From Nitrospirota bacterium (lineage in GTDB: Bacteria; Nitrospirota; Nitrospiria; Nitrospirales; Nitrospiraceae): a stretch of 64,000 nucleotides of DNA. The stretch is taken from contig CAVPBK010000005.1 of NCBI GenBank assembly GCA_963701855.1, positions 256,001-320,000 on the forward strand, read 5' to 3'. Position numbers and translations under genes: made by a program. Under the pieces are notes generated by a model, which saw only the letters and a list, made by a program, of their open reading frames with translations, was not told the origin of the DNA and made no database searches. Below, in pieces: positions 29,948 to 46,079 of this stretch. How positions within the stretch are numbered: position 1 is the first letter of the stretch; every line of letters begins with the position of its first letter.

Positions 29948-30481
29948 ATGGCACTCCACCTGATCGTCGATGGGTACAATCTCTTGGCGCTGACAGGTCG
30001 GATCGGTGCAGGGACGAGCTTGCATTCCGAGACGGCACGCGAGTCTTTCCTGCGCGATTTGGCGGCGTATCGTCAACGAAAATCCCATGCGATCACGGTG
30101 GTCTTTGACGGATGGCAACAAGGATGGGGCACAGAACAGCGGGAGCATCGGCTTGGTCTTGAAATTATCTTCTCTCGACGGGGAGAAAAGGCCGATCAGG
30201 TGATTCAACGTTTGGCTGCTGAGTTCGGATCCGCCTGCGCGGTGGTGAGTTCTGATCGTGAGATCGTCAACGTTGCGACGGCGCAGGGGGCCTTCGTCAT
30301 GAAAGCCCAGGAGTTTATTGGGAAACTGCAGGGGCCGTCGAGCTTGAGCCGAGCTTCCCTCCACAAGGAACTGGATACAGGGGAGGATCTTCGCCCGAAG
30401 CGAGGTCCGGAGAAGCGCGGGAACCCGAGGAAGTTACCCAAGGCGCTGCGACAGCGCAACCGGCAGCTCAAGCGATTTTGA
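29948..30481 (+). CDS. NYN-domain protein (YacP/Rae1-like ribonuclease)
   Basis: LIVDGYN, VVFDG, ADQVI and VVSSDREI motifs. Confidence 0.88.
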   Translation: MALHLIVDGYNLLALTGRIGAGTSLHSETARESFLRDLAAYRQRKSHAITVVFDGWQQGWGTEQREHRLGLEIIFSRRGEKADQVIQRLAAEFGSACAVVSSDREIVNVATAQGAFVMKAQEFIGKLQGPSSLSRASLHKELDTGEDLRPKRGPEKRGNPRKLPKALRQRNRQLKRF

Positions 30482-31247
30482 ACAGTCGTTTCGCGTTCTC
30501 GGTCGTAATGCGTCCGATGGTGTCGACCGACATGCCCGGTGCATCGGCATGAAGCTCCGCCAGTTTTTTCGCGACAAAGGACACGTAAGCCGGCTCGTTT
30601 CGTCTGCCTCGATGAGGGATGGGAGTCAGATACGGGCAGTCGGTTTCGATCAGGAGGCGGTCTAACGGAGCAGTCTTGGCGATATCTCGGAGCATTGTCG
30701 CGTTTTGAAACGTGAGAATACCGGAGAACGAGAGGTAGAACCCTAAGTCCAGCGCATCCTTTGCCAGCCACGCATCCCCTGAGAAGCAGTGAAAAACCCC
30801 GCCGATTTCTGACGCGCGCTCCTCTTTCAAAATTGCAATCGTATCATCTTGGGCCTCTCGCGTGTGAATGATCACCGGGAGTTTCAGCTCGCGTGCAAGT
30901 TGGATCTGTTCGCGAAATCGCTCGCGCTGTTCCTTCGGTGATGAATGATTGTAGTGGTAGTCAAGGCCGATCTCCCCATAGGCGACCACTTTTTTGTTCT
31001 GTGCTAGCCGGCGGAAATCGTCGTACCAGTTATCGAGGATATGCTTCACTTCATGCGGATGGACGCCGAGGGAGGCATAGACGAACGGGTATTGCTCTGC
31101 CAGTGCGATCGCCGCCTGGCTGGTTGCCAGATCGCAGCCGATGGTGACGAAGGCTTCGACGCCGGCTTCCCGGGCGCGGGCAATCATCGCCTCGCGATCC
31201 TCATTGTAGCGGGCATCGTCCAGATGGGTATGCGTATCGAAGAGCAT
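30468..31247 (-). CDS. TatD-family hydrolase
   Basis: DTHTH, GVHPH, GEIGLDY, IHTR, HCFSG and ETDCPYL motifs. Confidence 0.95.
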   Translation of the reverse strand: MLFDTHTHLDDARYNEDREAMIARAREAGVEAFVTIGCDLATSQAAIALAEQYPFVYASLGVHPHEVKHILDNWYDDFRRLAQNKKVVAYGEIGLDYHYNHSSPKEQRERFREQIQLARELKLPVIIHTREAQDDTIAILKEERASEIGGVFHCFSGDAWLAKDALDLGFYLSFSGILTFQNATMLRDIAKTAPLDRLLIETDCPYLTPIPHRGRRNEPAYVSFVAKKLAELHADAPGMSVDTIGRITTENAKRLFKIA

Positions 31248-31478: not shown

Positions 31479-31525
31479 AATTCAGAAATTCGCCGGTACT
31501 GCCAGTCACATAAGGCATTCGGCAA

Positions 31526-31586
31526 GAGGCCAGAGCACTTCGAGTCCAGAGCCCAGGGTCGCCAATCGGCGACTGTGGGCTTTTTT
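31526..31586 (+). promoter_or_regulatory. Leader motif copy 1: GAGGCCAGAG-N6-GAGTCCAGAG overlapping an intrinsic terminator
   Basis: Stem AGCCCAGGGTCGCC/aatc/GGCGACTGTGGGCT followed by a T run. Lies between the Fur box and tonB. Confidence 0.75.
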
Positions 31587-31604
31587 ATTGTGATGAGGGG
31601 CGAT

Positions 31605-32663
31605 GTGAACGGGTTCCAAGACAACTCCCAAATGCTGTTCCGTCTTGATGCGGAGGAATCAAGGCTTCGAGGGGAAAGTGCTGTTGCATGGCAGCAAATC
31701 TGTCGGCGGTTTCCGGTTCATAGGCAACCGGGGCATGGAGTCATCGTATCGCCATTTCAAGAGCAGTCATCTCCAATTACTCAACAAACAATATTTCGCT
31801 CACACAGTAAAGGCAGGGAGCATGCAGGTAAGCAGAGAAAGCTTCTAGGGTGGAACATATCAGTGTTGCTCCATGGTCTTGTCCTGACTGTTGTGACGGT
31901 GCTCAATCTTCACATGACTTCTCCACGAGTGACGCCACAGAAGGAGGCGTTCCATTGGGATGTGTCGCTCGTTTCGGTCCCCAAGACTGAACCCGTCGTT
32001 GCTGATGGAGTGCCGTCGCAAGAGGCTTTTCAGGCTGAAGAGATCTATCCTGAGGAAACGGGAGTCCGAGAGGTCGACTCATCGACTCAATCAGTAGAGT
32101 CGCTGCAGCAGATAGCGATCGTACAGACTATGTCATCGCCTGATAGAGCGCATCAACTCTTGTTTCCTCCAGAAAACAGGTCTCAGACGACAGAAGTATC
32201 CAGTAGGGCAACAACGATGTCCGTTGCCAGGCCCGTCGCGTCTATCTTGCCCCCTCCTGAAGTCGAGAACCAGACAGATTCGAAATTATTTCAACTTGAG
32301 ACGGAATTGGAAAATCCTACTGTGCTGCAACGCCCCCAAAGCATGACTCGAACTCCATTTAGCAAGACCATTCTCCCCGATTATGCATGGTTGATGGATA
32401 CGCTACGAACGAAGCTCGAGCGTGTCAAAACCTATCCAGCATTGGCAAAAGCCAACCATTGGCAGGGGCGTGTGGTCGTTCAGGTCCATATTGAAAGGGA
32501 TGGCCGCATTGCGAATTCGGAAATCGAAGAGAGTTCGGGACATGCGGTGTTGGATCGTGCGGCGCTGGAGGCCCTACAAGGCGTGTCGCCATTGATGCTC
32601 GCGCATGAACTGAATGGTAGTCCTGTCGTCATGTTGGTTCCCTTCAACTATCAACTCGAGTAA
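31605..32663 (+). CDS. Energy transducer TonB
   Basis: TM with SVLLHG motif, Pro/Glu-rich linker and C-terminal YPALAKANHWQGRVVV...SSGHAVLDRAA. Start uncertain. Confidence 0.85.
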   Translation: MNGFQDNSQMLFRLDAEESRLRGESAVAWQQICRRFPVHRQPGHGVIVSPFQEQSSPITQQTIFRSHSKGREHAGKQRKLLGWNISVLLHGLVLTVVTVLNLHMTSPRVTPQKEAFHWDVSLVSVPKTEPVVADGVPSQEAFQAEEIYPEETGVREVDSSTQSVESLQQIAIVQTMSSPDRAHQLLFPPENRSQTTEVSSRATTMSVARPVASILPPPEVENQTDSKLFQLETELENPTVLQRPQSMTRTPFSKTILPDYAWLMDTLRTKLERVKTYPALAKANHWQGRVVVQVHIERDGRIANSEIEESSGHAVLDRAALEALQGVSPLMLAHELNGSPVVMLVPFNYQLE

Positions 32664-32668
32664 ATCTT

Positions 32669-33205
32669 ATGCATGATCAGCGTCTTGTGCTCGAAACCTC
32701 GCTCTTTTATCAGTACTCCGGCGAACTGCTACGATTTCTGACTGCCAAACTAGGTTGCAGAGAACAGGCTGCTGATGTGGTGCAGGACACGTTCGTCCGT
32801 ATCCGCTGCCTGAAAGATTTGGCAGCCGTCGACCAGCCGCGCGCATTTCTTTACAAGACTGCGCTAAATCTCACGGTCGATCTGTTTCGACGGCAACGAG
32901 TCCGCGCCGAACGGATTGTCCAGCTTGAGGCGACCGAGGAAGTGCCATCCACGATACCGAGCCAGGACGTCGAGGTCGAGGCAAAAGAGCGTGTTCGACT
33001 TCTGTACGACGCGATCGCGGATCTCCCGCCCAAATGTCGACAGGTCTTTCTGCTCCATAAGTTCATGGATATTTCGCATGCGGAGATCGCCGCTCGTCTC
33101 GGGATTTCAAAGAACATGGTGGAAAAGCATGTGATGAAAGCCATGTCTCGGTGCCGGGAACGAGTTGAAGGCCTCGGGGACAACGGACACATCGATCCCT
33201 CATAG
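32669..33205 (+). CDS. FecI-type ECF sigma factor
   Basis: AADVVQDTF, PRAFLYKTALNL, LPPKCRQVFLL and EIAARLGIS..VEKH motifs. Adjacent to a FecR-like gene. Confidence 0.93.
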   Translation: MHDQRLVLETSLFYQYSGELLRFLTAKLGCREQAADVVQDTFVRIRCLKDLAAVDQPRAFLYKTALNLTVDLFRRQRVRAERIVQLEATEEVPSTIPSQDVEVEAKERVRLLYDAIADLPPKCRQVFLLHKFMDISHAEIAARLGISKNMVEKHVMKAMSRCRERVEGLGDNGHIDPS

Positions 33206-33235
33206 AGTGTCACTATATATATCAGCGACACACGG

Positions 33236-33266
33236 AGTCAGGTTTCTTCGGACTCTTGCGTCATAC
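33236..33266 (+). promoter_or_regulatory. Putative ECF-sigma promoter, copy 1 (upstream of fecR)
   Basis: AGTCAGGTTT-N7-CTC-N-TGCGTCA-N-AC, repeated ungapped at 36760-36790. Confidence 0.65.
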
Positions 33267-33316
33267 GACAGGGGAGCAGGAACTGGATAGGGTGATCTTT
33301 GCTTACAGGTTGAGAA

Positions 33317-34363
33317 GTGAATCGGATGAAGATCGTGCATGCTGTAACGGACGACCAGTTATCGACGGCTGATCAAGCACTTCGATGGTTCGTGCGGTTT
33401 CGGTCCGGCGATGCGACGGTCGCCGATCGGCGGAAGTTTCAGTCCTGGGTCAGGTCAGACCCGTCTCACCAACAGGAATTCGAGAAGATTTCCAGGCTTT
33501 GGATAGACCTTGACGAAACAAAACCGTTGCTCGCCGATGAGCTGAAGCGTGTCGTTGCCGATGGGAAATCCGAGGCTCATCGATCGCTTGAGAGGCATGC
33601 TGGACGATGGAGTACCTATGGACTTTCGAGCGCACTCGCAGCCTCTCTCATGTTGTTCATCGCAGTAGGCTGGTGGATGGTCGATCGACCAGAGACCGCG
33701 GTGTATCGGACTGTCAAGGGCGAACAGCGAACGGTTGCGCTCCCGGATGGGTCCAGGGTGATCCTGAATACCGATACCGCGGTCACGACGCAATTGTCCT
33801 CCTCTCGGAGGGGGGTGATTCTGCACAGAGGAGAAGCCTTCTTCGTCGTGTCGCATGACAAGCAGAGATCATTCGAGGTGGAGGCGGGCCGCGGAGTAAT
33901 TCGGGATATCGGCACACAGTTTACCGTCCGTCGGCAGTTGGAGCAGGTGACGGTGACTGTCGTAGAGGGTGCAGTAGAGGTACAGGGCCTATCGGAAAAA
34001 ATAGGCATAGCACCAGGGCAGCTTCTGACGGCCGGTGACAAGACGTCCTATGGGGCAGATGGCTTCCTCGCTCCAGTCGAAAAGATCGACATTGCCGTAT
34101 CCACCGCATGGATGGAAGGCAAAGTGCTGTTCGACCATCGTCCGTTGGCCGAGGTGATTCAGGAAATCGGTCGCTATCAAGAGGGAGAAATACGCGTCCT
34201 CGATCCCCGATTGAACGATCTCACAGTCAGTGGTGTATTTGGCGTCGATGATCGTGACGGGTTTCTGAGGGCACTTGAGACTGCAATTCCTGTGAAATCG
34301 ACCCGTGTAAACACAAGGTTAGTTGTTTTGGAGAAGAGCGATTTCCCCTCCCCTCGAAGATGA
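33317..34363 (+). CDS. FecR-type anti-sigma factor/transmembrane sensor
   Basis: QALRWFVR..FQSW..DPSHQQEF, a TM helix, and GEQRTVALPDGSRVILNTDT, GEAFF and IGTQF motifs. Confidence 0.93.
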   Translation: MNRMKIVHAVTDDQLSTADQALRWFVRFRSGDATVADRRKFQSWVRSDPSHQQEFEKISRLWIDLDETKPLLADELKRVVADGKSEAHRSLERHAGRWSTYGLSSALAASLMLFIAVGWWMVDRPETAVYRTVKGEQRTVALPDGSRVILNTDTAVTTQLSSSRRGVILHRGEAFFVVSHDKQRSFEVEAGRGVIRDIGTQFTVRRQLEQVTVTVVEGAVEVQGLSEKIGIAPGQLLTAGDKTSYGADGFLAPVEKIDIAVSTAWMEGKVLFDHRPLAEVIQEIGRYQEGEIRVLDPRLNDLTVSGVFGVDDRDGFLRALETAIPVKSTRVNTRLVVLEKSDFPSPRR

Positions 34364-34389
34364 GGGTTCATCGGTATCATTCGTCCAAG
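34359..34389 (+). promoter_or_regulatory. Putative ECF-sigma promoter, degenerate copy (upstream of exbB)
   Basis: TGAGGGTTCATCGGTATCATTCGTC matches copy 1 at 18 of 25 positions, with the same AGG-N16-CGTC spacing. Confidence 0.45.
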
Positions 34390-34445
34390 CGTAAGCGGTC
34401 GAGGTAATTCGGCCGCCGATTATTCATTTCATGAGGTGATCGATC

Positions 34446-34871
34446 GTGGAAGCACTGGAACATATGGTGGATTATGGTGTTATTGGATTACTCGTGGGTT
34501 TAAGCCTGTGGGCGTTGGCCGTGGCCGTGGAACGGTGGCTCTTCTATCGGCGAGTCACGTTGAACCAGTTTGACAATGTGCAAAGCATGGAGATCGCGTT
34601 GACCAGACGTCTGGTCGTCATTGGGACCGTCGCGGCCAATGCGCCCTATATCGGATTGCTAGGGACGGTCTTAGGCATCATGTTGACCTTTCATACCATG
34701 GGCACTTCGGGCACGATGGCCATGGGGACTATCATGGTCGGTCTCAGTTTGGCTCTCAAAGCGACGGCGGTGGGATTGTTGGTGGCGATCCCTTGTGTGG
34801 TGCTCAATAACATGCTGCGTCGACGGGTCTCCGAACTTCTGACACTCTACAGAGTGCAGCATGGAGCGTGA
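34446..34871 (+). CDS. exbB: TonB-system energizer ExbB (short type)
   Basis: NAPYIGLLGTVLGIM and ALKATAVGLLVAIP motifs. Confidence 0.93.
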   Translation: MEALEHMVDYGVIGLLVGLSLWALAVAVERWLFYRRVTLNQFDNVQSMEIALTRRLVVIGTVAANAPYIGLLGTVLGIMLTFHTMGTSGTMAMGTIMVGLSLALKATAVGLLVAIPCVVLNNMLRRRVSELLTLYRVQHGA

Positions 34872-35235
34872 GCTCAATCAGATCAATGTCATTCCATTAG
34901 TTGATGTCATGCTCGTGCTGTTGGTCATTGTCTTGACCACCGCGACCTTTATCTCGACTGGTCAAGTGCCGGTAGAATTGGCCAAGGCGAAAGAAGCCGG
35001 CGATCACAAGGACACGCCGTTGGTGATCACGCTCACGGCAGATGGGCGGATGTTCATTAACGATCAACCTGTGGGAGACGATGGTTTGAAAACGGTGCTG
35101 ACGTCGCACCCGAGAGAATCGTTTGTTGTGGTGCGCGCCGACCGGGTAACGGTGTTGGAACGGTTCGTGGGTGTGGTCGATGAGGTCCGAGGGTTGGGAT
35201 TTCGGCAGGTGAGTCTCGAGGTGGTTCGGTCATGA
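34861..35235 (+). CDS. exbD: Biopolymer transporter ExbD
   Basis: INVIPLVDVMLVLLVI and VRAD motifs. Confidence 0.93.
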   Translation: MERELNQINVIPLVDVMLVLLVIVLTTATFISTGQVPVELAKAKEAGDHKDTPLVITLTADGRMFINDQPVGDDGLKTVLTSHPRESFVVVRADRVTVLERFVGVVDEVRGLGFRQVSLEVVRS

Positions 35236-36077
35236 CAGCGGTCGAGATCAGCCAGGTAGCCAGAGGCCGCGAGGCGCATCATGCTCATGGCTGGATAGTT
35301 TCGATGCTGTGTCATGTGTTCGGCATCGGGAGCATTCTCTTGTTCATGGCGGACATCGAACCGCCGGTACTCCCGAACACATTTCAGTGGGAGGTCGCCA
35401 TGGTGGAAGCTCCGCCGACAGTGGAGCCGGCGCCTGCTCCACCGACGCCGACCCCCGTTCCTCAGCGCCAGGCTGAACGGTCCTTCGACCCTCGCCATCG
35501 TGCTCAAACCGCAGAGATGGTTCCACAAACAGTGCACGATATTGTTACTCCGATTGATGCGACGATGGAGCGCGCAATCATACAGACCACGGAAAGCTCG
35601 ACGGCAGTTACTCAGGCAGTTACCACCAATCACGAATCGGTGGCAGAGCAGGCAACCGTCACCTTTATGCAGAACTTGAGACAGGTGGAATTGGTAGAGC
35701 GAGAATCTCCTGCTTCCGACCCTCAATTATCCGCGATCGAGCATCGAGTCGTCCAACATCGGTTAGTGAAGGTTCGTGAGACGCAAGCCGACTATGGCTG
35801 GCTTCGGGATGCGCTCTGGGGTCGCATCCATGAGCTGAAGCGCTATCCATCGCTAGCCAAGGAGAACCATTGGGAAGGGAAGGTTGTGGTGCAAGCGGTA
35901 ATTCGCGCCGACGGTACAATCGTCGATTGTGAAGTTGCAGAAAGTTCTGGCCGGGCGATCCTGGATCAGGAGGCCCTGGCGGTTATGAGAAAAACCTCGC
36001 CGTTGATTCTCAAGCATCCGTTGGGGAAGCCGAGTATTACGCTACTTATTCCGATCACCTACAAGTTGGACGGCTAG
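35232..36077 (+). CDS. Energy transducer TonB (second paralog)
   Basis: SMLCH TM motif, Pro-rich linker and YPSLAKENHWEGKVVV...SSGRAILDQEA. Confidence 0.88.
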   Translation: MTAVEISQVARGREAHHAHGWIVSMLCHVFGIGSILLFMADIEPPVLPNTFQWEVAMVEAPPTVEPAPAPPTPTPVPQRQAERSFDPRHRAQTAEMVPQTVHDIVTPIDATMERAIIQTTESSTAVTQAVTTNHESVAEQATVTFMQNLRQVELVERESPASDPQLSAIEHRVVQHRLVKVRETQADYGWLRDALWGRIHELKRYPSLAKENHWEGKVVVQAVIRADGTIVDCEVAESSGRAILDQEALAVMRKTSPLILKHPLGKPSITLLIPITYKLDG

Positions 36078-36158
36078 CATCAAGGCCCCGCCTGGGTCAC
36101 GGTGATCGTAGAGGAGGAGAATACATTACGTGACTGAACGATAAACAGGAGAATCATC

Positions 36159-36617
36159 ATGATGAATTACTCGATGATCCGGCGCATATCCACGTTGTGC
36201 CGCGTGCTATGTGTGATGTTGGCATGTTCTGTGATTGGAAGTTCTGTCTGGGCGCAAACCAAGACTGACAAAGTCTTCCATGCCGTGGCGATGGATGCCA
36301 AGGGGGTCGAAACGGACATGAAGAACGTCATGTTCTATTGGGAGGAAAAAATCAGTGAGACGGCCTTCGTGCCGCACGAAGGCCGCGAAGTACCGGTCAA
36401 GCGCGGCACGGCCACGGTCAAGATCAAATTCGAGGCTATTAACCACATCGATCTCAAACCTTCCGGGAACGGCGCTCTGCCGAACGTCACGATTACACTC
36501 AATGACGGCAAGACGGGAGACTTCGTCCTCGCCATCGCGGGCAGTTTCAAAGGGCAATCAGACTTCGGAGAGGTTGAGCTGCCGGCAACTGAACTGAGGA
36601 AGCTCAGCTTTAGATAG
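36159..36617 (+). CDS. Exported hypothetical protein
   Basis: AGGAG RBS, Sec-type signal (VWA-QT) and a beta-rich mature region. Confidence 0.7.
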   Translation: MMNYSMIRRISTLCRVLCVMLACSVIGSSVWAQTKTDKVFHAVAMDAKGVETDMKNVMFYWEEKISETAFVPHEGREVPVKRGTATVKIKFEAINHIDLKPSGNGALPNVTITLNDGKTGDFVLAIAGSFKGQSDFGEVELPATELRKLSFR

Positions 36618-36759
36618 CGCCGCAAGCCATGCGACGTCGGGTAGACCCTCGCGGACGTTCATGCGCTTCTCAATTTCGGCTTTCCCTGACTCTGAAGCTG
36701 AACCGGTTTGGTGTCCCTGTCCCAGGCCATCACCAGCTGGCTATCTTTTCCGACGGAGA

Positions 36760-36790
36760 AGTCAGGTTTTTCAATTCTCATGCGTCAAAC
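36760..36790 (+). promoter_or_regulatory. Putative ECF-sigma promoter, copy 2 (upstream of the Com-like gene and receptor)
   Basis: AGTCAGGTTT-TTCAATT-CTC-A-TGCGTCA-A-AC. Confidence 0.65.
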
Positions 36791-36867
36791 CTATCGTGGA
36801 TGGGATTCGGCCTCTGTGCTCTCGTTGAGCAGGACGATAAATTTTTCTCCAGGGGCCAGGGGGGGCA

Positions 36868-37056
36868 ATGAGTGAACAGCGTGCGTCGGCGCCGGCTGCC
36901 ATGGATGTTCGATGTCGCTGTGGCAGGCTGATTGCTCGATGGGAAGGACACAGTCTTGTCATCAAGTGCACTCGATGCGGGCGTTTCGTACAGATTCACT
37001 CTTCGGCCATCAGTGGAACGCCACCTCCTGATCTGAGATCAGGGTCCCACCGGTAA
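36868..37056 (+). CDS. Com-like zinc-ribbon protein (phage Mu Com family-like)
   Basis: DVRCRCGRLIAR-x6-LVIKCTRCGRFVQI matches the Com pattern [IV]RC..C.[KR]L[LI]...I[KR]C.RC. G-rich RBS upstream. Confidence 0.7.
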   Translation: MSEQRASAPAAMDVRCRCGRLIARWEGHSLVIKCTRCGRFVQIHSSAISGTPPPDLRSGSHR

Positions 37057-37086
37057 TCCCGTCCACAGACAGGCGTTTGTCCGCAC

Positions 37087-37150
37087 GAGGCCAACGGAAC
37101 TTGAGTCCAGAGCCCACGGCTGCTTAGGCAGCCGTGGGCTCTGTTGTTTT
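37087..37150 (+). promoter_or_regulatory. Leader motif copy 2 with intrinsic terminator, between the Com-like gene and the receptor
   Basis: GAGGCCA-N9-GAGTCCAGAG. Perfect 16-bp stem CAGAGCCCACGGCTGC/ttag/GCAGCCGTGGGCTCTG followed by TTGTTTT. Confidence 0.78.
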
Positions 37151-37196
37151 CTAGAGGCAATGAGAACAAGTCAGTGCTGAGAAAGGAATAACGGCG

Positions 37197-39674
37197 ATGA
37201 CATGGCGCGAGATGGGAATTGGGTTGGGAGTGTTCGTATTGTTGATCGTATTGGCGTTCGTGGTGACACATTCTGCGTTTGCGCAGTCGGATGCGGTGAC
37301 CGTCACCATTCCACCTCAAGAGTTGTCGACAGCGCTGACGGCATTGGCCGAACAGACGAATCTGCAAGTACTCTATGCATCGGAACTTGCGAGCGGGAAA
37401 ATGACGAAAGGAGTCGCCGGCACGGTCACCGCGCAGGAGGCTATCCAACAGCTGATAGAAGGCACCGGTCTGGCCTATACGTTTACCGACGCCAAGACCG
37501 TGACGCTTCAGGCTGCGACACCGGCTGTGATGATCCCGGGCAATCTCTCTGCTCAGCCGGAACTCGGGACGATCAAACAGAAACCGATTAAAGTTCCAGA
37601 AGTTGTGGTGAAAGACGTCAGGACGCGCAGCTACACCGCCGATGAGGCCTCCAGCGCCACCAGGATTCCGATTCCCATTGAAGACGTTCCACGCTCTGTT
37701 GAGACCGTCACACGACAAGTAATTGATGACCAGAAAGTCATTCGTATGAGCGACGCGCTTCGGAATGTGAGCGGAACCTCTATGCCAAGTACACAGGGCG
37801 GCCGAGGCGGCGACTTCATGATCCGGGGTTTTCGGTCTGATCTGAACGTGTTCAAGAACGGCTTTCGGGAAGATAGTACGTTCGCTGCCCGGGCTGCACG
37901 GGACATCGCGAACCTCCAGAATATCGAAGTCGTGAAGGGACCACCTTCCTATCTCTATGGCCGAGCCGACCCGGGCGGTGTGATCAACCAGATTACCAAG
38001 GACCCGCTCCGAACACCCTACTACTCGGGTGAAATGATCTTTGGAAGCTACAACCTCTACCGGCCGACCATTGATATCGGCGGTCCGCTCAACGACAGCA
38101 GAACACTGACGTACCGGCTCAACGGCGTCTATGAGTCAGCCGAGAGCTATCGCGAAGGGGTTAAGAGCGAACGGGTATTCCTTGCGCCGACATTTGGTTG
38201 GGAAGCGACCTCACGGGACACATTTCGGCTTGAGCTCGAGTATCTCTATGATCGGTCCCCCATCGATCGAGGTCTGGTCGCAGTGGGAAGCGGTCCGGCG
38301 AATATTCCGATCGGCCGGTTTCTTGGAGACCCCACGAAGCGAGGAGAGATCAATCAGGGGAAGGCGACGTTGCAGTATCTTCATCAGTTCAACGAGATGT
38401 GGAAATGGCGAACCGCTGTGCGTATGGCCGTCACATCGGAAACCTATAACAGTCTCGAATCCTGGTTCATGGATGATGCAACAGGGAATCTCAGTTTGGC
38501 GGCGTTTCACATTCCATCGCTCGTACAAAGCAATTATATGCAGAATGAGGTACACGGTCTGTTTTCGACCGGGTCGGTGAAGCACAAGCTCTTAGCGGGT
38601 GTCGAGCTGGGATGGGAGTATTCGAAGCAGCAAGTACTTTCCGACTCTTTCGACTTCGCCAATTTGAACACCATCAATATTTATAATCCCTCCTATTCTT
38701 TTCACAATAACCGCTTGGACTCACAGTTTAACGGCACAACTAAAAACCAGATCGTGGGTGTCTATGCCGGCGATCAAATCAATCTGCTTGAGAACTTAAA
38801 GATGAATGTGGGTGGCCGGTTCGATTACTTCCATCAGAAGCAGGAGCTGAACCCCAATTCGTTCGATTCAACAAGCAGCACGGACGGACAGACCAAGAAT
38901 GCCTTCAGTCCGTCGATCGGGATCGTCTATCAACCGATCAAGCCGATCTCGTTGTTCGCCGATTTTACCCAGTCATTCGCCCCGCAATCTTCCATATCGC
39001 GAAGTGTCACCGGCCAAATATTCGAACCTGAGCGGGGACAGCAGGTCGAGGGAGGTATTAAATTTCAAGCGTACGAAGGAAAATTGCGGGCTACGATGGC
39101 CGTGTTTGAAATCAAAAAGAAGCACGTGCTCACCGCCGACGTCAGCCAAGGGCCGGGGTCCGGATTCTCCATCGCCACCGGAGAACAACGCAGCAAAGGC
39201 TTTGAATTCGACATTGCAGGACAGGTCCATCCAGGATTAGAGATCATCGGCAACTATGCCTACATCGATGCGCGCGTCACCCAAGACAATCTATTTGCCA
39301 TTGGCAGCCGCCTGCCGAATGTTCCTTTGAACCAAGGGAGTATCTGGGCCAAGTATGTCTTTCAAGAGGGTGTCGTGAAAGGGTTCGGAGCCGGGCTGGG
39401 AATGTACGCGCAAAGTAATCGTCAAGGTATTTTCCAGTGTCAGGATCCGATCCAGTGTCAGGCACCCTTCAATTTAGCTGGTTTCGTGCGCATGGATGGG
39501 GCGTTGTACTATTACAAACCGGAGGTATTTTCAGGAAGCAATCTGCTCGCGTCGTTGAACTTCACGAATCTACTGGATCAGCGCTACATGACCGGGGCGC
39601 AAAACTTCCGTGAAATTATCTACACCGGCGCACCATTGACGGTGATTGGTTCGCTGAAACTGGAGTTCAATTAG
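37197..39674 (+). CDS. TonB-dependent siderophore receptor with N-terminal signalling (STN) domain
   Basis: Signal peptide, STN (IPPQELSTALTALAEQT), plug (DVPRSV, IEVVKGPPSYLYG..PGGVINQITK) and a beta-barrel ending LKLEFN. Confidence 0.95.
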   Translation: MTWREMGIGLGVFVLLIVLAFVVTHSAFAQSDAVTVTIPPQELSTALTALAEQTNLQVLYASELASGKMTKGVAGTVTAQEAIQQLIEGTGLAYTFTDAKTVTLQAATPAVMIPGNLSAQPELGTIKQKPIKVPEVVVKDVRTRSYTADEASSATRIPIPIEDVPRSVETVTRQVIDDQKVIRMSDALRNVSGTSMPSTQGGRGGDFMIRGFRSDLNVFKNGFREDSTFAARAARDIANLQNIEVVKGPPSYLYGRADPGGVINQITKDPLRTPYYSGEMIFGSYNLYRPTIDIGGPLNDSRTLTYRLNGVYESAESYREGVKSERVFLAPTFGWEATSRDTFRLELEYLYDRSPIDRGLVAVGSGPANIPIGRFLGDPTKRGEINQGKATLQYLHQFNEMWKWRTAVRMAVTSETYNSLESWFMDDATGNLSLAAFHIPSLVQSNYMQNEVHGLFSTGSVKHKLLAGVELGWEYSKQQVLSDSFDFANLNTINIYNPSYSFHNNRLDSQFNGTTKNQIVGVYAGDQINLLENLKMNVGGRFDYFHQKQELNPNSFDSTSSTDGQTKNAFSPSIGIVYQPIKPISLFADFTQSFAPQSSISRSVTGQIFEPERGQQVEGGIKFQAYEGKLRATMAVFEIKKKHVLTADVSQGPGSGFSIATGEQRSKGFEFDIAGQVHPGLEIIGNYAYIDARVTQDNLFAIGSRLPNVPLNQGSIWAKYVFQEGVVKGFGAGLGMYAQSNRQGIFQCQDPIQCQAPFNLAGFVRMDGALYYYKPEVFSGSNLLASLNFTNLLDQRYMTGAQNFREIIYTGAPLTVIGSLKLEFN

Positions 39675-39719
39675 ATGTGCCGGGAAGGTTGCGCAGCCCG
39701 GTCTTGGTTGGGCTAGGCC

Positions 39720-40874
39720 GTGAACCGCATGCCTTGGCAGAAGCTGTGGCTGCGGGTTCATTGGTGGCTCGGTCTCTTTGCCGGGGCGATGTTTGTTTTC
39801 ATCGGGCTCACCGGAAGCACCTTGGTGTTCTATCAGGTTCTCGATGTATGGCTGAATCCGGAGCGACTCACGACAGGGGGTCGAGGAAGCTATCGTTCGT
39901 TTGATGAGATGGCGACGGCAGCTCGAATGGCGCGGCCCGATGTGCCAGGACCCTATGTCCTCTTGTTGCCGTCCGATACCCAGGGCGTGGTGGTTGCCTG
40001 GTTCAAGAAGTCTACTGGCGAGCAGGGGCGCGCCCAGGAGATCGAAGTTGCGATCGATCCGTACAGTTCAAGAGTTTTGAGCAAGGATCGTATGTGGGGC
40101 AGCACCCCGGTCTCGTTTGTCTACGAATTTCACCAAGCCCTGCTACTGGAAACGGTTGGGGAAACCATTCTCGGTTTCTTCGCCTTCTTCCTGTTGTTGT
40201 CGGTTTCCACAGGTCTCTACCTCTGGTGGCCAAAGCCGGGAAGAATTCGAGAAGCGTTTACGATCAAGTCTGATGGGAGCCGTCTCCGGAGCCTGTATGA
40301 CCTGCATAAGCTCAGCGGGATTTCGGGCGCGCTGATTCTGCTTGTTCTCGCTTCAACGGGCCTATATCTGGAGTTTCCCGCATACGTCAGCCCACTGGTC
40401 GGGTCGATTTCGCCATTTCCCGAAGAGCCTGTATTGCGTTCGAACGCAGGTTCGGAGAGACGATCTATTCCGATCGATCGGGCCGTCACGATCGCCCAGT
40501 CTATCTTTCCATCCGGTGAACTGAAGTGGGTCGGGTTGCCGCAACAGCGCGATGACGTCTACCAGATCGGTCTGCGTCAATCCGAGGAGGTTCGGCGTTC
40601 GAGTGGCGAAAGCATTGTTTGGCTGGATCAGTATAGCGGTGAGGTTTTACATACGCGCGACTGGAATCGACTTACTGGCGGAGAAACGTTCCTTGCCTGG
40701 CTGTTTCCCTTGCACAACGGCGAAGCGTTCGGACTAATAGGGCGATGGATCGTGTTCGTGACTGGATTTATTCCCTCCGTGCTCTATGCCACCGCGCTTC
40801 GGATGTGGTGGTTGAAGCGAAAGGCGCATATGCGGCGAAAAGCGAGTGTCGACTCCTCACCTGCGAACGCCTGA
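39720..40874 (+). CDS. PepSY-associated TM helix protein (ferrisiderophore reductase-like)
   Basis: HWWLGL..GLTGS, YEFH, TGLYLWWP, DLHKLSG and PLHNG conserved His motifs. Confidence 0.9.
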   Translation: MNRMPWQKLWLRVHWWLGLFAGAMFVFIGLTGSTLVFYQVLDVWLNPERLTTGGRGSYRSFDEMATAARMARPDVPGPYVLLLPSDTQGVVVAWFKKSTGEQGRAQEIEVAIDPYSSRVLSKDRMWGSTPVSFVYEFHQALLLETVGETILGFFAFFLLLSVSTGLYLWWPKPGRIREAFTIKSDGSRLRSLYDLHKLSGISGALILLVLASTGLYLEFPAYVSPLVGSISPFPEEPVLRSNAGSERRSIPIDRAVTIAQSIFPSGELKWVGLPQQRDDVYQIGLRQSEEVRRSSGESIVWLDQYSGEVLHTRDWNRLTGGETFLAWLFPLHNGEAFGLIGRWIVFVTGFIPSVLYATALRMWWLKRKAHMRRKASVDSSPANA

Positions 40875-41053
40875 TATTCCCATGAGTTACGTTTTCCCGC
40901 CCATCCGGCATGGGATCTATCTTTTCGGCAAGGATTCAACCCTGGCGCGGTGTCTAGAGGAGGAGTTACACCACATGAGGTTATTTCTAGTTCATACGTC
41001 ACATCTATATGGGTGGGTTGAGGGAAGATGGCGGCTGCGCTGAATGTTCTTCT

Positions 41054-42121
41054 ATGAACAAAAAGAAGATTTCAATCGTTCTGGCGGTATTCGCAGTGAT
41101 CGTCATTCTGATGATCAAGCTGTGGGATCGACCGACAAGCGGGTCGGCTGTGTTCACAGAATCGGCCGAAGGGCCCATGTTGGTGGATGTTTCACCGGTT
41201 ATGGTCGGCTCGATTACTGAATCAATTCAGGCAGTCGGTACGCTGCAGGCTATTGCCTCGATCATGATTAGGCCGGAAATTGCCGGGATAGTTCGCCGGA
41301 TCCATTTTGCTGATGGGCAATTCGTCGAACGAACAGTTCCTCTCGTCGAAATGGATCCGGAGGAACTTCAGGCACAAGCCAATCAAGCCGCAGCTCAAGA
41401 AAAAATGACGCAAGTCACATACGAACGTCTCAAGCGGCTCGCTGCTCAACAGACGACGATTGTGCCCACTCAGCAAGTCGATGAAGCCAGGTTAGCCCTC
41501 CAAGCCGCCGCCGCCAATACGGTGCTGTATGCCACGCGCTTGAAGAAAACCATCATCCGTGCTCCGTTCAGCGGCACGGTGGGTTTTCGTCGAGTGTCGG
41601 TCGGGGATTACATGCAACCAGGACAGGATATTGTGAATCTCGAAGATCTGAGCACCCTTCACGTGGACTTCAAGGTGCCCGAGGTGTGGCTCAGTCAGCT
41701 CTTCGTGGACCAACGTTTGATCGTCACGACCGATGCGTTTCCCAATGTCTCGTTTGAAGGATGTGTATCGGCGATCGATCCGCGGATCGATTCGGTCAAT
41801 CGAACGGTCGCCGTTCGTGCGGCGGTTCCCAACCCCGAAGGAACACTTCGTCCCGGTCTCTTCGCGACGGTTCGGTTGACGCACGGACAGGATACTCACG
41901 CCCTGCTAATCCCGGAAGAGGCGGTGTTTCTGCAACGGGACAAGGTCATGGTATTTCGCGTGGAGGATCAAACTGCCCGGTTGACGGAGATCGCGGTCGG
42001 CGCGCGCGAACGGGGGATGGTCCAGGTGCGCACCGGTTTGAAGGAAGGCGATCATGTCGTACGTACCGGCACGCATAAGGTGCGCGAAGGTCTCCGGGTT
42101 TCCGTCAAGTCATCTCAGTAA
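41054..42121 (+). CDS. RND efflux periplasmic adaptor subunit
   Basis: IRPEIAGIV, IRAPFSG, LRPGLFA, IPEEAV and GLKEGDHVV motifs. Confidence 0.92.
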   Translation: MNKKKISIVLAVFAVIVILMIKLWDRPTSGSAVFTESAEGPMLVDVSPVMVGSITESIQAVGTLQAIASIMIRPEIAGIVRRIHFADGQFVERTVPLVEMDPEELQAQANQAAAQEKMTQVTYERLKRLAAQQTTIVPTQQVDEARLALQAAAANTVLYATRLKKTIIRAPFSGTVGFRRVSVGDYMQPGQDIVNLEDLSTLHVDFKVPEVWLSQLFVDQRLIVTTDAFPNVSFEGCVSAIDPRIDSVNRTVAVRAAVPNPEGTLRPGLFATVRLTHGQDTHALLIPEEAVFLQRDKVMVFRVEDQTARLTEIAVGARERGMVQVRTGLKEGDHVVRTGTHKVREGLRVSVKSSQ

Positions 42122-42178
42122 GAAAGGCTCACCCGTTCGCATGCTCAGCTTCAACACACATTTCTTCCGGCTATCAGT

Positions 42179-45100
42179 ATGAAGCTGTCAGAGACATCAA
42201 TCCATCGCCCTGTGTTTGCCATCGTACTGACGCTGTTGCTGGTCCTGTTCGGTGGGCTGAGCTTCACGCGTCTTTCCGTGCACGAATATCCCGATATCAA
42301 ACCTCCGATTGTCTCGGTACGCACGGTGTACCTTGGAGCCAGTGCGTCCGTGATCGAAACGGATGTGACCACTCCCATCGAGGATGCGCTCAGCGGGATA
42401 CAGGGGCTGAGAACCATCACGTCTGCGAGTCGGGAAGAAGCCTCATCGGTGACCCTGGAGTTCGATCTGGGTCGTGATTTGGACGGCGCTACAAACGACG
42501 TACGGGATCGAGTCGCATTGACTCGCGCGCTGTTGCCGCTGGGGATTCAAGAGCCCATCGTATCTAAGGCCGCATCGGACAATACCGAAGTGATGTGGAT
42601 GGCGCTGTCCAGCGTCCGTCATTCAGAATTGGAACTTTCGGATGTCGCCGATCGTTTTATCAAAGTCCGCATGGCCATGGTTTCGGGAGTTTCGAGCGCG
42701 TATTTGGACGGGGAACGTCGGTACGCGATGCGAATATGGTTGGACCCCGATCGTCTCGCTGCACGCCGCTTAACCGTCCAGGATGTCGAAGAGGCGATTC
42801 GAAACCAGAATGCTTCGATCCCTGCGGGACGGATCGAAAGCGATCAAATGGAATTCGGCGTATCGCTCAGGGGGACGTTGCATACCCCGGAGCAATTCGA
42901 GCAACTTATCATTGCCACCCGCGAAGGCTATCCCGTTCGGTTACGCGATGTCGCTCGAGTCGAACTCGGAGCTGAAGATTCCCGCAAGCTCGGCCGTCTG
43001 AACGGTACCTCGTCGATCGGCATCGGCGTCTCGAAGCAATCCAAAGCCAATCCCTTGGCCGTCGCCCGCACGCTCAAAGAGCAGCTCCCTGGCATTGCCG
43101 CCGGTTTGCCGGAAGGGATGAACCTGACAATTGCCTGGGATAGTTCGACTCCGATCGAACGGTCGTTGCACGAGGTCTATGTGGCGTTGGGGCTGTCGCT
43201 GGTGCTTGTCGTGGTCGTGATTTTTGGCTTTTTGGGCAACGCCAGGGCCACGCTTGTGCCGGCCGTTGCGATTCCTGCTTCGATCATCGGGACCTTCACG
43301 GTCATGGCCGTCACGGGGTGCTCTCTGAACGTGCTGACGTTACTCGGACTCGTTCTGGCTGTGGGGTTGGTGGTCGATGATGCCATCATCGTGCTTGAAA
43401 ATATCCATCGACGGATTGCCGACGGGATGCCGCCATTGCAGGCGGCTGCCGAAGGCACGAAAGAAATTTCGTTTGCTGTAGTGGCGACGACGATCTCACT
43501 CGTGACCGTGTTCGTCCCGATCACGTTTCTAAGCGGCCTCGTTGGGCGCCTCTTTGCCGAATTGGCCATCGCGGTGGCCTCGGCCGTGCTGCTGTCCGGT
43601 TTTGTCGCGCTGACGCTGACGCCGATGATGTGCGGATACTTGCTTCGTCCTGAAACGAAGCAGTCGACCTGGAACCGGTTGGCTGCGCGAGCGTCGGAGC
43701 GTCTCGCCGCCGTCTATCGGCGCGCACTGGTATGGACCATGGAGGCGAAGGTCATGGTCGTGATCTTGGCCATAGGCGCGAGTCTGGGAAGTTTGGTTGT
43801 CCTGAAACATCTGCCGTCCGAACTGGCCCCGCATGAAGACGCAGGATGGTTCTCAGGGTTTCTCACGGCTCCACAAGGCGCGACCATTCGCTACACCGAC
43901 ACCTATGCCCGAGAGTTGGAATCGTTAATCCAATCCGTTCCGGAGGTCTCGATGCTCTATACGGTTGTGGCGCGAGGAGAGCGCCCTACGATCGTCAATC
44001 GGGCTGCGAGTTGGGTGACGCTACGGGATTGGAATGATCGGACTAGGAGCCAACAGGAGATTGTCGCTGCACTGAATCGAGATCTTGGCAGACTGACCGG
44101 CGTAAAGGCGTATTTGCTGAATCCATCTCCCATCGAAGAATGGTCGGAGAAAACTCCCGTACAGTTCGTGATTGGGGGCTTGGAGTATCAGGAGTTGCAA
44201 AAGGTTGCCGAAGGGTTGCTTGCGAAGCTGGCGGCTCATCCGGGATTTGTAACGCCGGATATGGACTTAGCGCAGAATACTCCGCATGTCGTCGTTGATA
44301 CGCATCGGGAGAAAGCCGCGGACCTTGGGGTATCGGTTGTCACCATCGGGCGTACGCTTCAAACGTTGCTCAGCGGGAGTCCGGTCAACACATTCGCGCG
44401 AAACGGGCGCCAGTATAACGTGATCGTCAAGGTCGACGATCAACGTCGCGAAAAGCCGTCCGACATCAGCGCGCTCTATGTGAGAGGGAAAGAAGGAGTA
44501 TTGGCTCAGCTGAGCAATCTCGTGACCGTGCGGGAGGAGCCCGCGCCCGAATCATTGCATCATGTCGATCGTATGCGCGCGGTGACGATCAGCGCAGGGT
44601 TGACTGAGGGGTTTACCCTCGGGCAAGCGTTAGCCTATCTCGATCAAACGGTTCACGAGATGCTCCTTCCGAACATGCGGACAAGCTACGCGGGAGAATC
44701 GAAAACCTTCGTGGAAAGCAATGCGAATCTGTACATGACCTTCGCACTTGCGCTGGCGGTGATCTTTCTAGTTCTCTCCGCCCAATTCGAAAGTTTCCGG
44801 CATCCCTTCACGATTCTCTTGGCAGTGCCTCCGGCTGTCTCAGGAGCGGTACTCGCGCTGACTATTACTCGAGGCACACTGACGATCTATAGCCAAATCG
44901 GGTTGGTGATCTTGATCGGACTTGCCACGAAGAACGCCATTTTGATCGTGGAGTTTGCCAATCAACTTCGGGATCGAGGCGTGGATCTGGTGGATGCCGT
45001 GATCGAGGCAGCGACATTGCGGCTGCGACCGATTCTCATGACAACCTGCGCCACGATTCTGGGCACCCTTCCGCTTGTGTTCGCGACCGGCGCCGGCGCT

Positions 45101-45241
45101 GCCAGCCGACGACAAATTGGAATCGTGTTGGTTGGGGGGCTGGTCGTTTCGACCCTGGTCACGCTTTTTCTCGTTCCGGCTGCGTATGCGATCCTGTCAA
45201 GCCGTAGAGAGAGACCGAAACTTCCGCAATCATTGAATTAG
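42179..45241 (+). CDS. RND efflux permease (AcrB/AcrD/AcrF family)
   Basis: RPVFA, GLVVDDAIIVLENI, KNAILIVEFA and RLRPILMT motifs. 1020 aa. Confidence 0.95.
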   Translation: MKLSETSIHRPVFAIVLTLLLVLFGGLSFTRLSVHEYPDIKPPIVSVRTVYLGASASVIETDVTTPIEDALSGIQGLRTITSASREEASSVTLEFDLGRDLDGATNDVRDRVALTRALLPLGIQEPIVSKAASDNTEVMWMALSSVRHSELELSDVADRFIKVRMAMVSGVSSAYLDGERRYAMRIWLDPDRLAARRLTVQDVEEAIRNQNASIPAGRIESDQMEFGVSLRGTLHTPEQFEQLIIATREGYPVRLRDVARVELGAEDSRKLGRLNGTSSIGIGVSKQSKANPLAVARTLKEQLPGIAAGLPEGMNLTIAWDSSTPIERSLHEVYVALGLSLVLVVVVIFGFLGNARATLVPAVAIPASIIGTFTVMAVTGCSLNVLTLLGLVLAVGLVVDDAIIVLENIHRRIADGMPPLQAAAEGTKEISFAVVATTISLVTVFVPITFLSGLVGRLFAELAIAVASAVLLSGFVALTLTPMMCGYLLRPETKQSTWNRLAARASERLAAVYRRALVWTMEAKVMVVILAIGASLGSLVVLKHLPSELAPHEDAGWFSGFLTAPQGATIRYTDTYARELESLIQSVPEVSMLYTVVARGERPTIVNRAASWVTLRDWNDRTRSQQEIVAALNRDLGRLTGVKAYLLNPSPIEEWSEKTPVQFVIGGLEYQELQKVAEGLLAKLAAHPGFVTPDMDLAQNTPHVVVDTHREKAADLGVSVVTIGRTLQTLLSGSPVNTFARNGRQYNVIVKVDDQRREKPSDISALYVRGKEGVLAQLSNLVTVREEPAPESLHHVDRMRAVTISAGLTEGFTLGQALAYLDQTVHEMLLPNMRTSYAGESKTFVESNANLYMTFALALAVIFLVLSAQFESFRHPFTILLAVPPAVSGAVLALTITRGTLTIYSQIGLVILIGLATKNAILIVEFANQLRDRGVDLVDAVIEAATLRLRPILMTTCATILGTLPLVFATGAGAASRRQIGIVLVGGLVVSTLVTLFLVPAAYAILSSRRERPKLPQSLN

Positions 45242-45452: not shown

Positions 45453-45493
45453 TTGCCATGCAAATTATTATATGATATTGTTTCTCAATATCA
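45453..45493 (+). promoter_or_regulatory. Sigma70-type promoter overlapped by a Fur-box-like palindrome
   Basis: TTGCCA(45453)-17-TATTGT(45476). TGATATT-G-TTTCTCA lies within a perfect 8-5-8 inverted repeat, TGATATTG-tttct-CAATATCA. Confidence 0.72.
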
Positions 45494-45533
45494 GACAGTG
45501 CAACGCTCTTCCGAGCGCCGATACATAGCAGCT

Positions 45534-45592
45534 GAGGCCAGAGTCATTCAGGACGGAGCCCAAGGTCATCGCAAGTGGCCGTGGGCTTTTTT
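45534..45592 (+). promoter_or_regulatory. Leader motif copy 3 with intrinsic terminator
   Basis: GAGGCCAGAG...GAGCCCAAGGTCAT/cgcaa/GTGGCCGTGGGCTTTTTT. An extra GAGCGCC sits at 45513-45519. Confidence 0.72.
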
Positions 45593-45686
45593 ATTGGTGC
45601 AGGGACAAGAAGATTCCGGAATCTGTGGGACTGATGCGAGGCAAACGAGATCATCGGATAGACCCAATTCAGGGAGGGCTCAGCGG

Positions 45687-45867
45687 ATGTATATCTGTCT
45701 GTGCAAAGGGATCAAGAAGGATGAGCTCTGTGAAATCGTGGCACGGCATCGGGCTGTCCTCAAGCAGTGAAATCAGCCATGGGGCGGGATGAGTCTTTTG
45801 CGGTCGATGCGAGCAGAAATTGGAATCCATGATTTATCACGTTTCAGCAAGTCTGCTGAACGATTGA
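45687..45867 (+). pseudogene. Bfd-like [2Fe-2S] ferredoxin, frameshifted
   Basis: MYICLCKGI..., then in shifted frames CPQAVKSAMG and CGRCEQKLE. GGAGG RBS. Confidence 0.7.
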
Positions 45868-45908
45868 ATAAGGAGCTGAAGGTGGCTCAACAGATGAAAG
45901 GATGGGCG

Positions 45909-46079
45909 ATGACTGGATCGTGTCGGAAGTGCGGTGGTTTCCTGATCGTGGAGCGAGTGCTCGATTACCATAGCTCGACGGACGGTATGAAATGCATCAA
46001 CTGTGGGTGGCGCCGCCGGGATGTTCAGCCGTCTTTCGGTCCCCCAGATGGCGTGAGGAATCGGGGCGCGCGCAAGTGA
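45909..46079 (+). CDS. Small zinc-ribbon protein (CxxCGG...CxNCG)
   Basis: MTGSCRKCGGFLIVE...GMKCINCGWR with an AGGA RBS. Confidence 0.65.
   Translation: MTGSCRKCGGFLIVERVLDYHSSTDGMKCINCGWRRRDVQPSFGPPDGVRNRGARK

Follow-up and report, generated by a model that had tools for sequence, protein, structure and literature searches.

The window, a 64,000-nucleotide stretch of contig CAVPBK010000005.1 from a Nitrospirota bacterium, holds a TonB/siderophore-uptake island in which a gene for a small protein related to Com of phage Mu lies between a promoter motif of the extracytoplasmic function (ECF) sigma type and the gene for a TonB-dependent siderophore transducer (Table 1). This com-like gene, hereafter com, is followed by one of three copies of an RNA element made up of two adjacent helices, P1 and P2, the second of which has the form of an intrinsic terminator. 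The initial annotation had placed com between such a promoter and a transducer with no prophage around it, and this is confirmed for the window: no phage or Mom family is found in the 64 kb among the 65 open reading frames (ORFs; 9 plus a further 56) scanned against Pfam. A genome scan with one genome per species finds relatives of com encoded in at least 15 Nitrospira loci (L001-L015), all from Nitrospira or Nitrospiraceae metagenome-assembled genomes (MAGs). The counts given below for synteny, promoters and elements rest on these 15 listed loci, with or without the window (16 sources when it is included). Two arrangements occur. In class A (L001, L002, L009, L014 and the window) com is followed by the transducer gene, and in class B (11 of the 15 listed loci) by pepSY. 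The expected synteny with the receptor thus holds for class A and is replaced in class B by the order com-pepSY. In both classes com belongs invariably to the Nitrospira TonB/siderophore-uptake island and is a chromosomal member of the Com family.

The frame of com is open from 36,841, and the ATG at 36,868 is its sole possible start. A G-rich stretch, GGGGGGG, lies upstream of this ATG with 3 nt between them. The frame is open in all 16 sequences (window plus listed loci), with the start codon 11-15 codons ahead of the first Cys, and the four Cys residues, which are at positions 16 and 18 (C-x-C) and 34 and 37 (C-x-x-C) of the window protein, are retained in every one. Over a 41-codon core the mean proportion of nonsynonymous differences (pN) in 120 pairs is 0.088, against a synonymous proportion (pS) of 0.556, and the median ratio of nonsynonymous to synonymous divergence (dN/dS) is 0.08 across the 113 pairs with finite dS. 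In the shifted-frame control, which covers both other frames, the pattern is reversed (pN 0.23, pS 0.11). Selection on com is therefore strongly purifying; on the dN/dS value a spurious ORF is rejected, and com can be taken with near certainty to be a real gene. The short ORF with C-x-C and C-x-x-C knuckles and a G-rich ribosome-binding site that had been picked out in the initial annotation is sound in frame, Cys residues and selection alike, and its homologues are conserved rather than freely variable. The expectation that so small a gene would be missed by annotation pipelines is correct only in part, since the exact window sequence is absent from the protein collection searched but relatives exist in such collections. 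A word-based search gives nine candidates, seven of which are relatives of the com-like protein, and an exhaustive profile-free protein search gives 80 representative clusters at E ≤ 0.001. Members of the protein clusters carry the names “hypothetical protein” or “phage FluMu protein Com”.

The protein matches the Pfam family PF10122 (Zn_ribbon_Com) marginally, with an E-value of 3.3e-5 and 23.7 bits against a gathering cut-off of 22.9. An alignment of 68 sequences (A3), composed of the window protein, the proteins of 13 loci and 54 database proteins, represents the sub-family to which it belongs, and 34 of the 68 members match PF10122 at E ≤ 0.01. Omitted from A3 are L005 and L012, which are redundant, P0003-P0007, P0039, proteins with two domains in tandem, six long multi-stretch hits, and P0015 and P0041, in which the second Cys is replaced by Tyr. 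Residues R15, C16, C18, C34 and C37 are invariant in A3, and G19, L21, A23, K33 and R36 nearly so. When the A3 profile is compared by hhalign with Mu Com, whose sequence is taken from an annotated phage record, the probability is 96% with an E-value of 3.7e-9 and 28% identity over 32 columns, and a gap of one residue falls within knuckle 1. Mu Com has C-x-x-C in this knuckle, whereas the C-x-C form is invariant in the 68 sequences of A3 and the 16 Nitrospira sequences, so that the window protein lacks the two C-x-x-C knuckles of the Com family. The C-x-C form, to which the initial annotation had ascribed a possible change of metal preference, for example to Fe, is common to all 68 sequences of this broad family and thus marks the family as a whole instead of being peculiar to the window. 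Based on these comparisons, the window protein is classed as homologous to the zinc ribbon of Mu Com, within a C-x-C/C-x-x-C sub-family; PF10122 and the hhalign result both support its earlier description as phage-type and Com-like.

The AlphaFold2 model, computed with A3 as input, has four short strands. Structure prediction had been proposed as a check, and the ribbon is modeled confidently, with a predicted local distance difference test (pLDDT) score of 88-94 over residues 11-50 and low confidence at both protein ends; the four Cys residues are the putative zinc ligands. The family is basic, with a median isoelectric point (pI) of 9.6 and a pI above 8 in 63 of 68 members. The conserved C-terminal motif S-A-I-x-G-x-P-P falls outside the ribbon, and no signal peptide is present. 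Look-alikes in the Atlas, which come most commonly from Myxococcota, Nitrospirota and Thermodesulfobacteriota, carry the automatic names “Com family DNA-binding transcriptional regulator” or “hypothetical protein”. NCBIfam has no family for the com-like ORF. Searches of the Protein Data Bank (PDB) by sequence profile give a best E-value of 0.065, which is unusable, and a Foldseek search of the model against PDB and BFVD gives nothing at E ≤ 0.001. Among phages, tblastn returns 10 records, some annotated as Com, every one at E ≥ 0.9, and among plasmids one record at E 0.2. The best sub-threshold PDB match is chain A of 8oqh, a Cys-rich region of a phosphoinositide phosphatase with the pattern R-C-x-C ... 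C-x-x-C, which may serve as a structural template for the C-x-C knuckle. Some relatives (P0027, P0032, P0034, P0043, P0049, P0050 and P0051) carry tandem C-x-C/C-x-x-C ribbons in one chain of 71-116 residues. They hint that the ribbons act in pairs, which is compatible with the two repeated GAG(G/C)CCA blocks of the RNA element. The six long multi-stretch hits, P0010, P0012, P0021, P0026, P0046 and P0077, belong to FG-GAP, ankyrin/TIR or no clear family and lack PF10122, and therefore they are treated as composition-driven matches and rejected as family members.

The RNA element was sought in 232 kb in all, consisting of the 64-kb window and the 15 loci of at most about 12 kb each. A covariance model built from 33 copies (alignment A5) has 35 full-length matches on the plus strand, 3 in the window and 32 in L001-L015; its minus-strand matches are only the palindromic stems of the same copies. 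A looser pattern finds the window copies at 31,526, 37,087 and 45,534, where none is expected, and 31 in the loci, all on the gene strand. The element is about 75-90 nt long and consists, in order, of GAGGCCA, the 4-bp helix P1, GAGCCCA, a variable upper stem, TGGGC and a T-run. GAGGCCA, GAGCCCA and TGGGC are invariant in all 33 aligned copies, and the upper stem is free to vary. Paired cells make up 95.4% of the alignment overall (90% in P1 and 97% in P2), changes on both sides occur in 8 of 18 pairs, and both helices are backed by covariation, with a score of 0.40 compared with 0.167 for shuffled alignments, none of 500 of which reaches 0.40, and at most 0.066 for pairs slid out of register. 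The element is therefore a structured RNA under sequence-specific constraint. Rfam has no match to it at E ≤ 1 in 32,000..42,000, nor any that reaches the gathering score in the window, L008 or L011, so that it is a candidate for a new RNA family absent from Rfam. Every one of the 16 islands holds two to three copies together with com. In the copy that follows com, the hairpin at 37,108..37,143 has 16 pairs, a folding energy of about -37 kcal/mol and a z-score of -4.6, and is followed by a T-rich run. In class A, the post-com sequence GAGGCCAACGGAAC.TGAGTCCAGAGCCCA and the hairpin are near-invariant. Beyond copy 3 lie two small Cys-rich ORFs of no Pfam family: 45,789..46,079, which has C-x-x-C twice and relatives in 12 loci, and 46,662..46,880, which has C-x-C and a C-terminal C-H and relatives in 10 class B loci.

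Table 1. Features of the com island in the window
Feature	Position	Strand	Remarks
TatD gene	30468..31247	-	Pfam; nearest real gene upstream of element copy 1
TTGACA (sigma-70-type -35) with AT-rich inverted repeat TTGATActAATTATCAA	31437..31478	+	Regular expression; 48 nt upstream of element copy 1
Element copy 1	31516..31605	+	GAGGCCA, helix P1, helix P2 (terminator), U-run; covariance model 71.6 bits; leader of tonB-like/ECF sigma operon
TonB_C-domain protein	31575..32663	+	Pfam TonB_C, E 5e-16
ECF sigma factor	32669..33205	+	Pfam Sigma70_r2, Sigma70_r4_2
ECF-type promoter motif P1, TCAGGTT-N14-CGTC	33238..33262	+	Between sigma gene and fecR
FecR-type anti-sigma/regulator	33317..34363	+	Pfam DUF4880, FecR, FecR_C
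exbB	34446..34871	+	Pfam
exbD	34861..35235	+	Pfam
tonB	35232..36077	+	Pfam
152-residue signal-peptide protein, “putative lipoprotein”	36159..36617	+	Without Pfam family; Nitrospirota look-alikes in the Atlas are named “putative lipoprotein”
ECF-type promoter motif P2	36762..36786	+	82 nt before com start
com-like gene, 62 residues	36868..37056	+	C-x-C and C-x-x-C zinc ribbon (predicted) at residues 13-44; tail S-A-I-x-G-x-P-P conserved
Element copy 2, com-proximal subtype	37077..37164	+	Covariance model 73.5 bits
Copy 2, GAGGCCA	37087..37093
Copy 2, weak helix P1	37096..37108
Copy 2, helix P2 (hairpin)	37108..37143		Interrupted U-run follows
TonB-dependent siderophore transducer	37197..39674	+	Pfam STN, Plug, barrel; NCBIfam TIGR01783, 328.7 bits
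PepSY_TM protein	39720..40874	+	Pfam PepSY_TM, E 3.7e-61
AT-rich inverted repeat TGATATTG-N5-CAATATCA	45473..45493	+	Upstream of element copy 3; coordinates counted by hand
Element copy 3	45524..45611	+	Covariance model 66.1 bits; ahead of two small Cys-rich ORFs

The position of the copies relative to genes is that of a leader. Eighteen of 34 copies end no more than 70 nt before a start codon on the same strand (exbB, a tonB-like gene, an ECF sigma gene or the transducer gene), many of them 11-67 nt ahead of the start codons of iron-uptake operons. In 12 of 34 the nearest upstream ORF is on the opposite strand, and the real gene upstream of copy 1, TatD, points away from it. Because start codons follow closely and upstream ORFs face away, transcription of the operons has to pass the hairpin, which makes the element a leader rather than the terminator of an upstream gene. 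A hairpin with a U-run thus stands between promoter and regulated gene, as an intrinsic terminator would, and conserved sequence of the kind expected for recognition (GAGGCCA and GAGCCCA, in 33 of 33) is located at its base. The leader folds into a variable hairpin P0, a conserved single-stranded block, P1 and P2, and the predicted terminated RNA is about 105-115 nt long. In the 28 copies not next to com, at least 6 of the 8 nt after the stem are T in every case.

No antiterminator in cis is apparent: duplex energies between the leader and an arm of P2 are mostly within about 2 standard deviations of shuffled sequences and show no consistent direction (20 copies, 2 of them without a usable leader), which leaves room for a factor acting in trans. 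Since the blocks of the element are invariant, a sequence-specific trans factor is called for. Sequences complementary to the conserved single-stranded block show no enrichment in the window (27 matches, 21 expected).

The island has promoter motifs of two kinds. The motif TCAGGTT-N13-15-CGTC, whose CGTC-type -10 is of the kind expected of ECF promoters, has exactly two copies in every class A source (five of five): one lies between the sigma gene and fecR, and the other precedes com. None of the 11 class B loci contains it, and for a stricter ECF pattern no chance match is expected in the window. The gap between sigma gene and fecR holds the motif in L001, L002, L009 and L014, as it does in the window. 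The copy before com lies within extra DNA that lengthens the gap between the lipoprotein gene and com to 246-271 nt in class A, against 79-143 nt in class B, and in this DNA the GTCAGGTT and TGCGTC blocks are invariant in all five class A sequences. Promoter motif P2 may thus be the sigma-dependent promoter of a com-transducer unit, in which com would be the first cistron of an ECF-sigma-dependent series of P2, com, element, transducer and pepSY. Over the 52-67 nt that separate the hairpin from the receptor start in class A, only the ribosome-binding site is conserved, and no conserved promoter fits there. The class B gaps between sigma gene and fecR and between fecR and transducer gene contain GAGGA or GAGGG, about 15 nt and CGTC, a motif that differs in spelling but keeps the spacing; it was read by eye and confirmed only in part by regular expression. 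The accessible part of a review of metal-responsive ECF sigma factors (PMC6851896) gives no promoter consensus for comparison.

The second kind of motif precedes the typical element copy. A regular expression for TTGACA-N-(A/T)GATA...TATCA finds 26 sites in the 16 sources, 25 of them in L001-L015, all on the plus strand and about 85-170 nt upstream of element copies; the com-proximal copies lack this site. The AT-rich inverted repeats are taken here to resemble Fur boxes, and suggest that iron-repressed promoters feed the element leaders. The site just upstream of exbB differs among class B loci. In six of them (L003, L005-L008, L010; ~155 or 3560-3655) an ECF-type GAGGGAT-N-TCGTC is found there, and in L011-L013 and L015 a Fur-type promoter and an element copy occupy it; the same operon is therefore wired to different controls.

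The upstream neighbors of com are constant. The gene for the 152-residue lipoprotein is directly 5' of com in all 15 listed loci (tblastn), TonB is encoded upstream in 14, with L004 truncated by a contig end, and ExbB/ExbD in 13, being absent from L001 and lost to the same truncation in L004. The downstream side is where the two classes diverge. In class A, pepSY follows beyond the transducer gene in the window and in three of the four loci (not L001). In class B, the orthologous transducer, 58-60% identical, is encoded about 3-5 kb further on, after sigma and fecR genes of its own, and the flanks of com contain no invariant non-coding motif. The TonB_C protein ahead of the ECF sigma gene is a second, longer protein of this type and is conserved in class A. 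Its true start is probably further downstream, because the start assigned mechanically overlaps element copy 1.

Taken together, these features are best read as those of a possible regulatory pair of protein and RNA, to which a probability of roughly 0.38 is assigned for the whole chain from RNA binding, through the element as target, to antitermination. By analogy with Mu Com, the com-like protein would be a small basic RNA-binding zinc ribbon, and its likely target would be the unit of GAGGCCA, P1 and the terminator P2 in the leaders of the island operons. If the protein bound at the P2 base or next to it, the terminator would be weakened and RNA polymerase could read through into the genes for the receptor, ExbB/TonB and the sigma factor. 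In class A, com expression would begin once the sigma factor fires, and the com product would open its own downstream hairpin as well as the Fur-type leaders. Where a Fur-type leader precedes exbB, as in four class B loci, com itself lies behind such a leader, which would give positive feedback. Com would then add a third layer of control above those of Fur type and ECF type. The initial annotation had proposed a trans-acting antiterminator that is transcribed ahead of the hairpin. The layout is as described in the window, where com lies between the ECF-type promoter and the terminator-like hairpin, and the proposal gains in a wider form, with a 35-copy element, invariant blocks and all 16 islands. 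Against its narrow form speak the 11 of 15 listed loci in which pepSY follows com, and the com-proximal position of the weakest U-tracts.

Mu Com is a translational activator of mom; according to the available portion of PMC6483171, the motif that it recognizes lies in a short hairpin, whose larger and inhibitory neighbor it destabilizes, and the disordered C-terminal part of the protein is dispensable for binding. The two proteins are both 62 residues long, both have an N-terminal four-Cys ribbon followed by a tail that is disordered in Mu Com (PMC6483171, same portion) and of low model confidence in the window protein, and each gene is directly upstream of a stable hairpin and of a possible target gene. 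The geometry of the element is also like that of Mu, with P1 beside P2 and invariant blocks at the base of P2. The differences begin with the first knuckle and the low identity noted above and extend to the genes: Mu com overlaps mom, whereas com in the window has neither a phage context nor a mom-like gene, and is followed by a transducer or pepSY gene. Furthermore, the receptor start lies more than 50 nt downstream of the window hairpin, which carries a U-run and leaves the start codon free. Since the start codon is spared, the Mu mechanism of unmasking it is not directly transferable.

Leaders opened by a protein are known from the BglG/LicT and HutP systems. The likeness to these lies in the leader, in which an intrinsic terminator is preceded directly on its 5' side by conserved sequence that extends into its base. 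The com-like protein differs in being a 62-residue zinc ribbon and not of the CAT/PRD or HutP fold, and an alternative antiterminator hairpin is not detected here. In iron uptake, the nearest functional precedent is HemP/HmuP/ChuP, likewise a small protein encoded ahead of a TonB-dependent receptor. As far as the available portion of PMC9131926 goes, ChuP is encoded first in a Fur-repressed operon before such a receptor, is proposed to act post-transcriptionally and to bind heme, and is described without a recurrent terminator element. Its fold and family are unrelated to those of the com-like protein, in which no hemP domain is matched in Pfam at E ≤ 1.

Several observations weigh against the proposed regulatory pair. 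The Mu Com target motif CC(N)2-3GAG, as given in the accessible part of PMC6483171, is not matched exactly in the element. The com-proximal copies have the weakest U-tracts of all, with 5, 3, 7, 4 and 6 T in 8 nt (5 in copy 2), and may simply leak. In 11 of the 15 listed loci com is not adjacent to any element copy, and in class B the transducer gene is served by a separate ECF-type promoter and is preceded by neither com nor a hairpin. The co-occurrence of com and the element is that of one syntenic island in related genomes, and so amounts to a single phylogenetic observation. On the protein side, the Pfam score exceeds its cut-off by only 0.8 bits, phage Com proteins are reached no better than E 0.9 by tblastn, and look-alike clusters are named as DNA-binding transcriptional regulators in one source. 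Moreover, the trans factor could instead be encoded by one of the two Cys-rich ORFs beyond copy 3, either of which might also encode a metal protein.

Some of the same evidence can be read without Com. The element copies may be Fur-controlled small RNAs, leaky terminators or both, with the copy after com ending or dampening the com transcript and the role of Com lying elsewhere; this is a possible but somewhat doubtful explanation. RyhB and PrrF are Fur-repressed small RNAs, and such RNAs include products of terminator read-through. The resemblance consists of a Fur-box-like promoter, a predicted RNA with three hairpins and some 110 nt that ends in a strong terminator, and multiple copies within a genome region. 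A typical copy has, in order, such a promoter, about 45 nt with the variable P0, the conserved block, P1 and a terminator with at least 6 T in 8; the predicted length of the RNA, the two to three copies per island and the decayed U-tracts of the com-proximal copies also fit this explanation. However, many copies act as leaders within 11-67 nt of start codons, and 18 of 34 lie so close to one (≤70 nt), with no other promoter in view, that they are not stand-alone genes and read-through would be needed in any case. A plain terminator needs no invariant sequence in its lower stem. No Rfam match and no complementarity to targets are seen, and the complement of the conserved block in the window is near expectation. 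The small-RNA and leader readings are compatible, and both can be true.

If the small-RNA and leader readings are joined with the proposed role of Com, a broader view can be formulated, in which a Com descendant would read the invariant GAG(G/C)CCA blocks and open the terminator, the terminated leader would be a Fur-controlled small RNA, and the wider C-x-C sub-family (80 clusters, several phyla) would consist of unrecognized RNA-binding regulators. As a whole this is unlikely, but if true, the sub-family would be a widespread and so far unrecognized class of such regulators in bacteria.

The constancy of the neighboring genes allows for a protein that binds no nucleic acid at all. With the lipoprotein gene present in 15, tonB in 14 and pepSY directly downstream in 11 of the 15 listed loci, and with a conserved S-A-I-x-G-x-P-P motif outside its ribbon, Com might be a protein-binding accessory of TonB/ExbBD, of PepSY_TM or of the sigma/anti-sigma pair. 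Its homology to an RNA-binding protein, its strongly basic character and the spread of the wider family over several phyla speak against such a role, as does the fact that the neighboring lipoprotein is exported and Com has no signal peptide, and the accessory is judged improbable. Its basic character would equally suit a DNA-binding transcription factor acting on the island promoters, which is what the automatic name of the look-alike clusters implies. That name is a label only; the characterized homologue binds RNA (PMC6483171, in the portion available), and class B com travels without a conserved DNA motif besides promoters, so that DNA binding carries little probability. Least probable is an Fe(Cys)4 rubredoxin-like site at the C-x-C knuckle for iron sensing or for passing electrons to a PepSY_TM reductase: four invariant Cys, the iron-uptake context and the adjacency of pepSY would suit it, but C-x-C is invariant throughout the broad family, no rubredoxin family is matched in Pfam or NCBIfam, and the protein is basic, presumably unlike rubredoxins.

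Com has been known as a curiosity of phages, and a chromosomal relative in a TonB/ECF island would mean that this small RNA-binding fold was recruited by the host to regulate its own genes. In the nitrite-oxidizing Nitrospira, which matter for nitrogen removal, the leader element is a new candidate for a cis-regulatory RNA or a small RNA. The open-access literature searched yields no paper that describes this RNA element or a member of the Com family within a TonB/ECF island, and none on iron regulation in Nitrospira, a topic that is hardly studied; the papers listed for PF10122 and the Com family bear no title that concerns iron uptake or TonB. The protein and RNA form a small pair, of about 60 residues and 75 nt, that is directly testable.

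Some further features of the islands are of a minor kind. Loci L008 and L012 are two separate exbBD-tonB-lipoprotein-com-pepSY islands on contigs of the same MAG (UBA5698), and are either paralogous islands in one genome or the product of a mixed bin. The 56 further window ORFs scanned against Pfam include sugar and cell-wall genes, housekeeping genes, a second receptor, and a pair consisting of a membrane-fusion protein and an AcrB-type resistance-nodulation-division pump. This pair, at 41,009..45,241, is located directly after pepSY and before element copy 3, and may export a siderophore.

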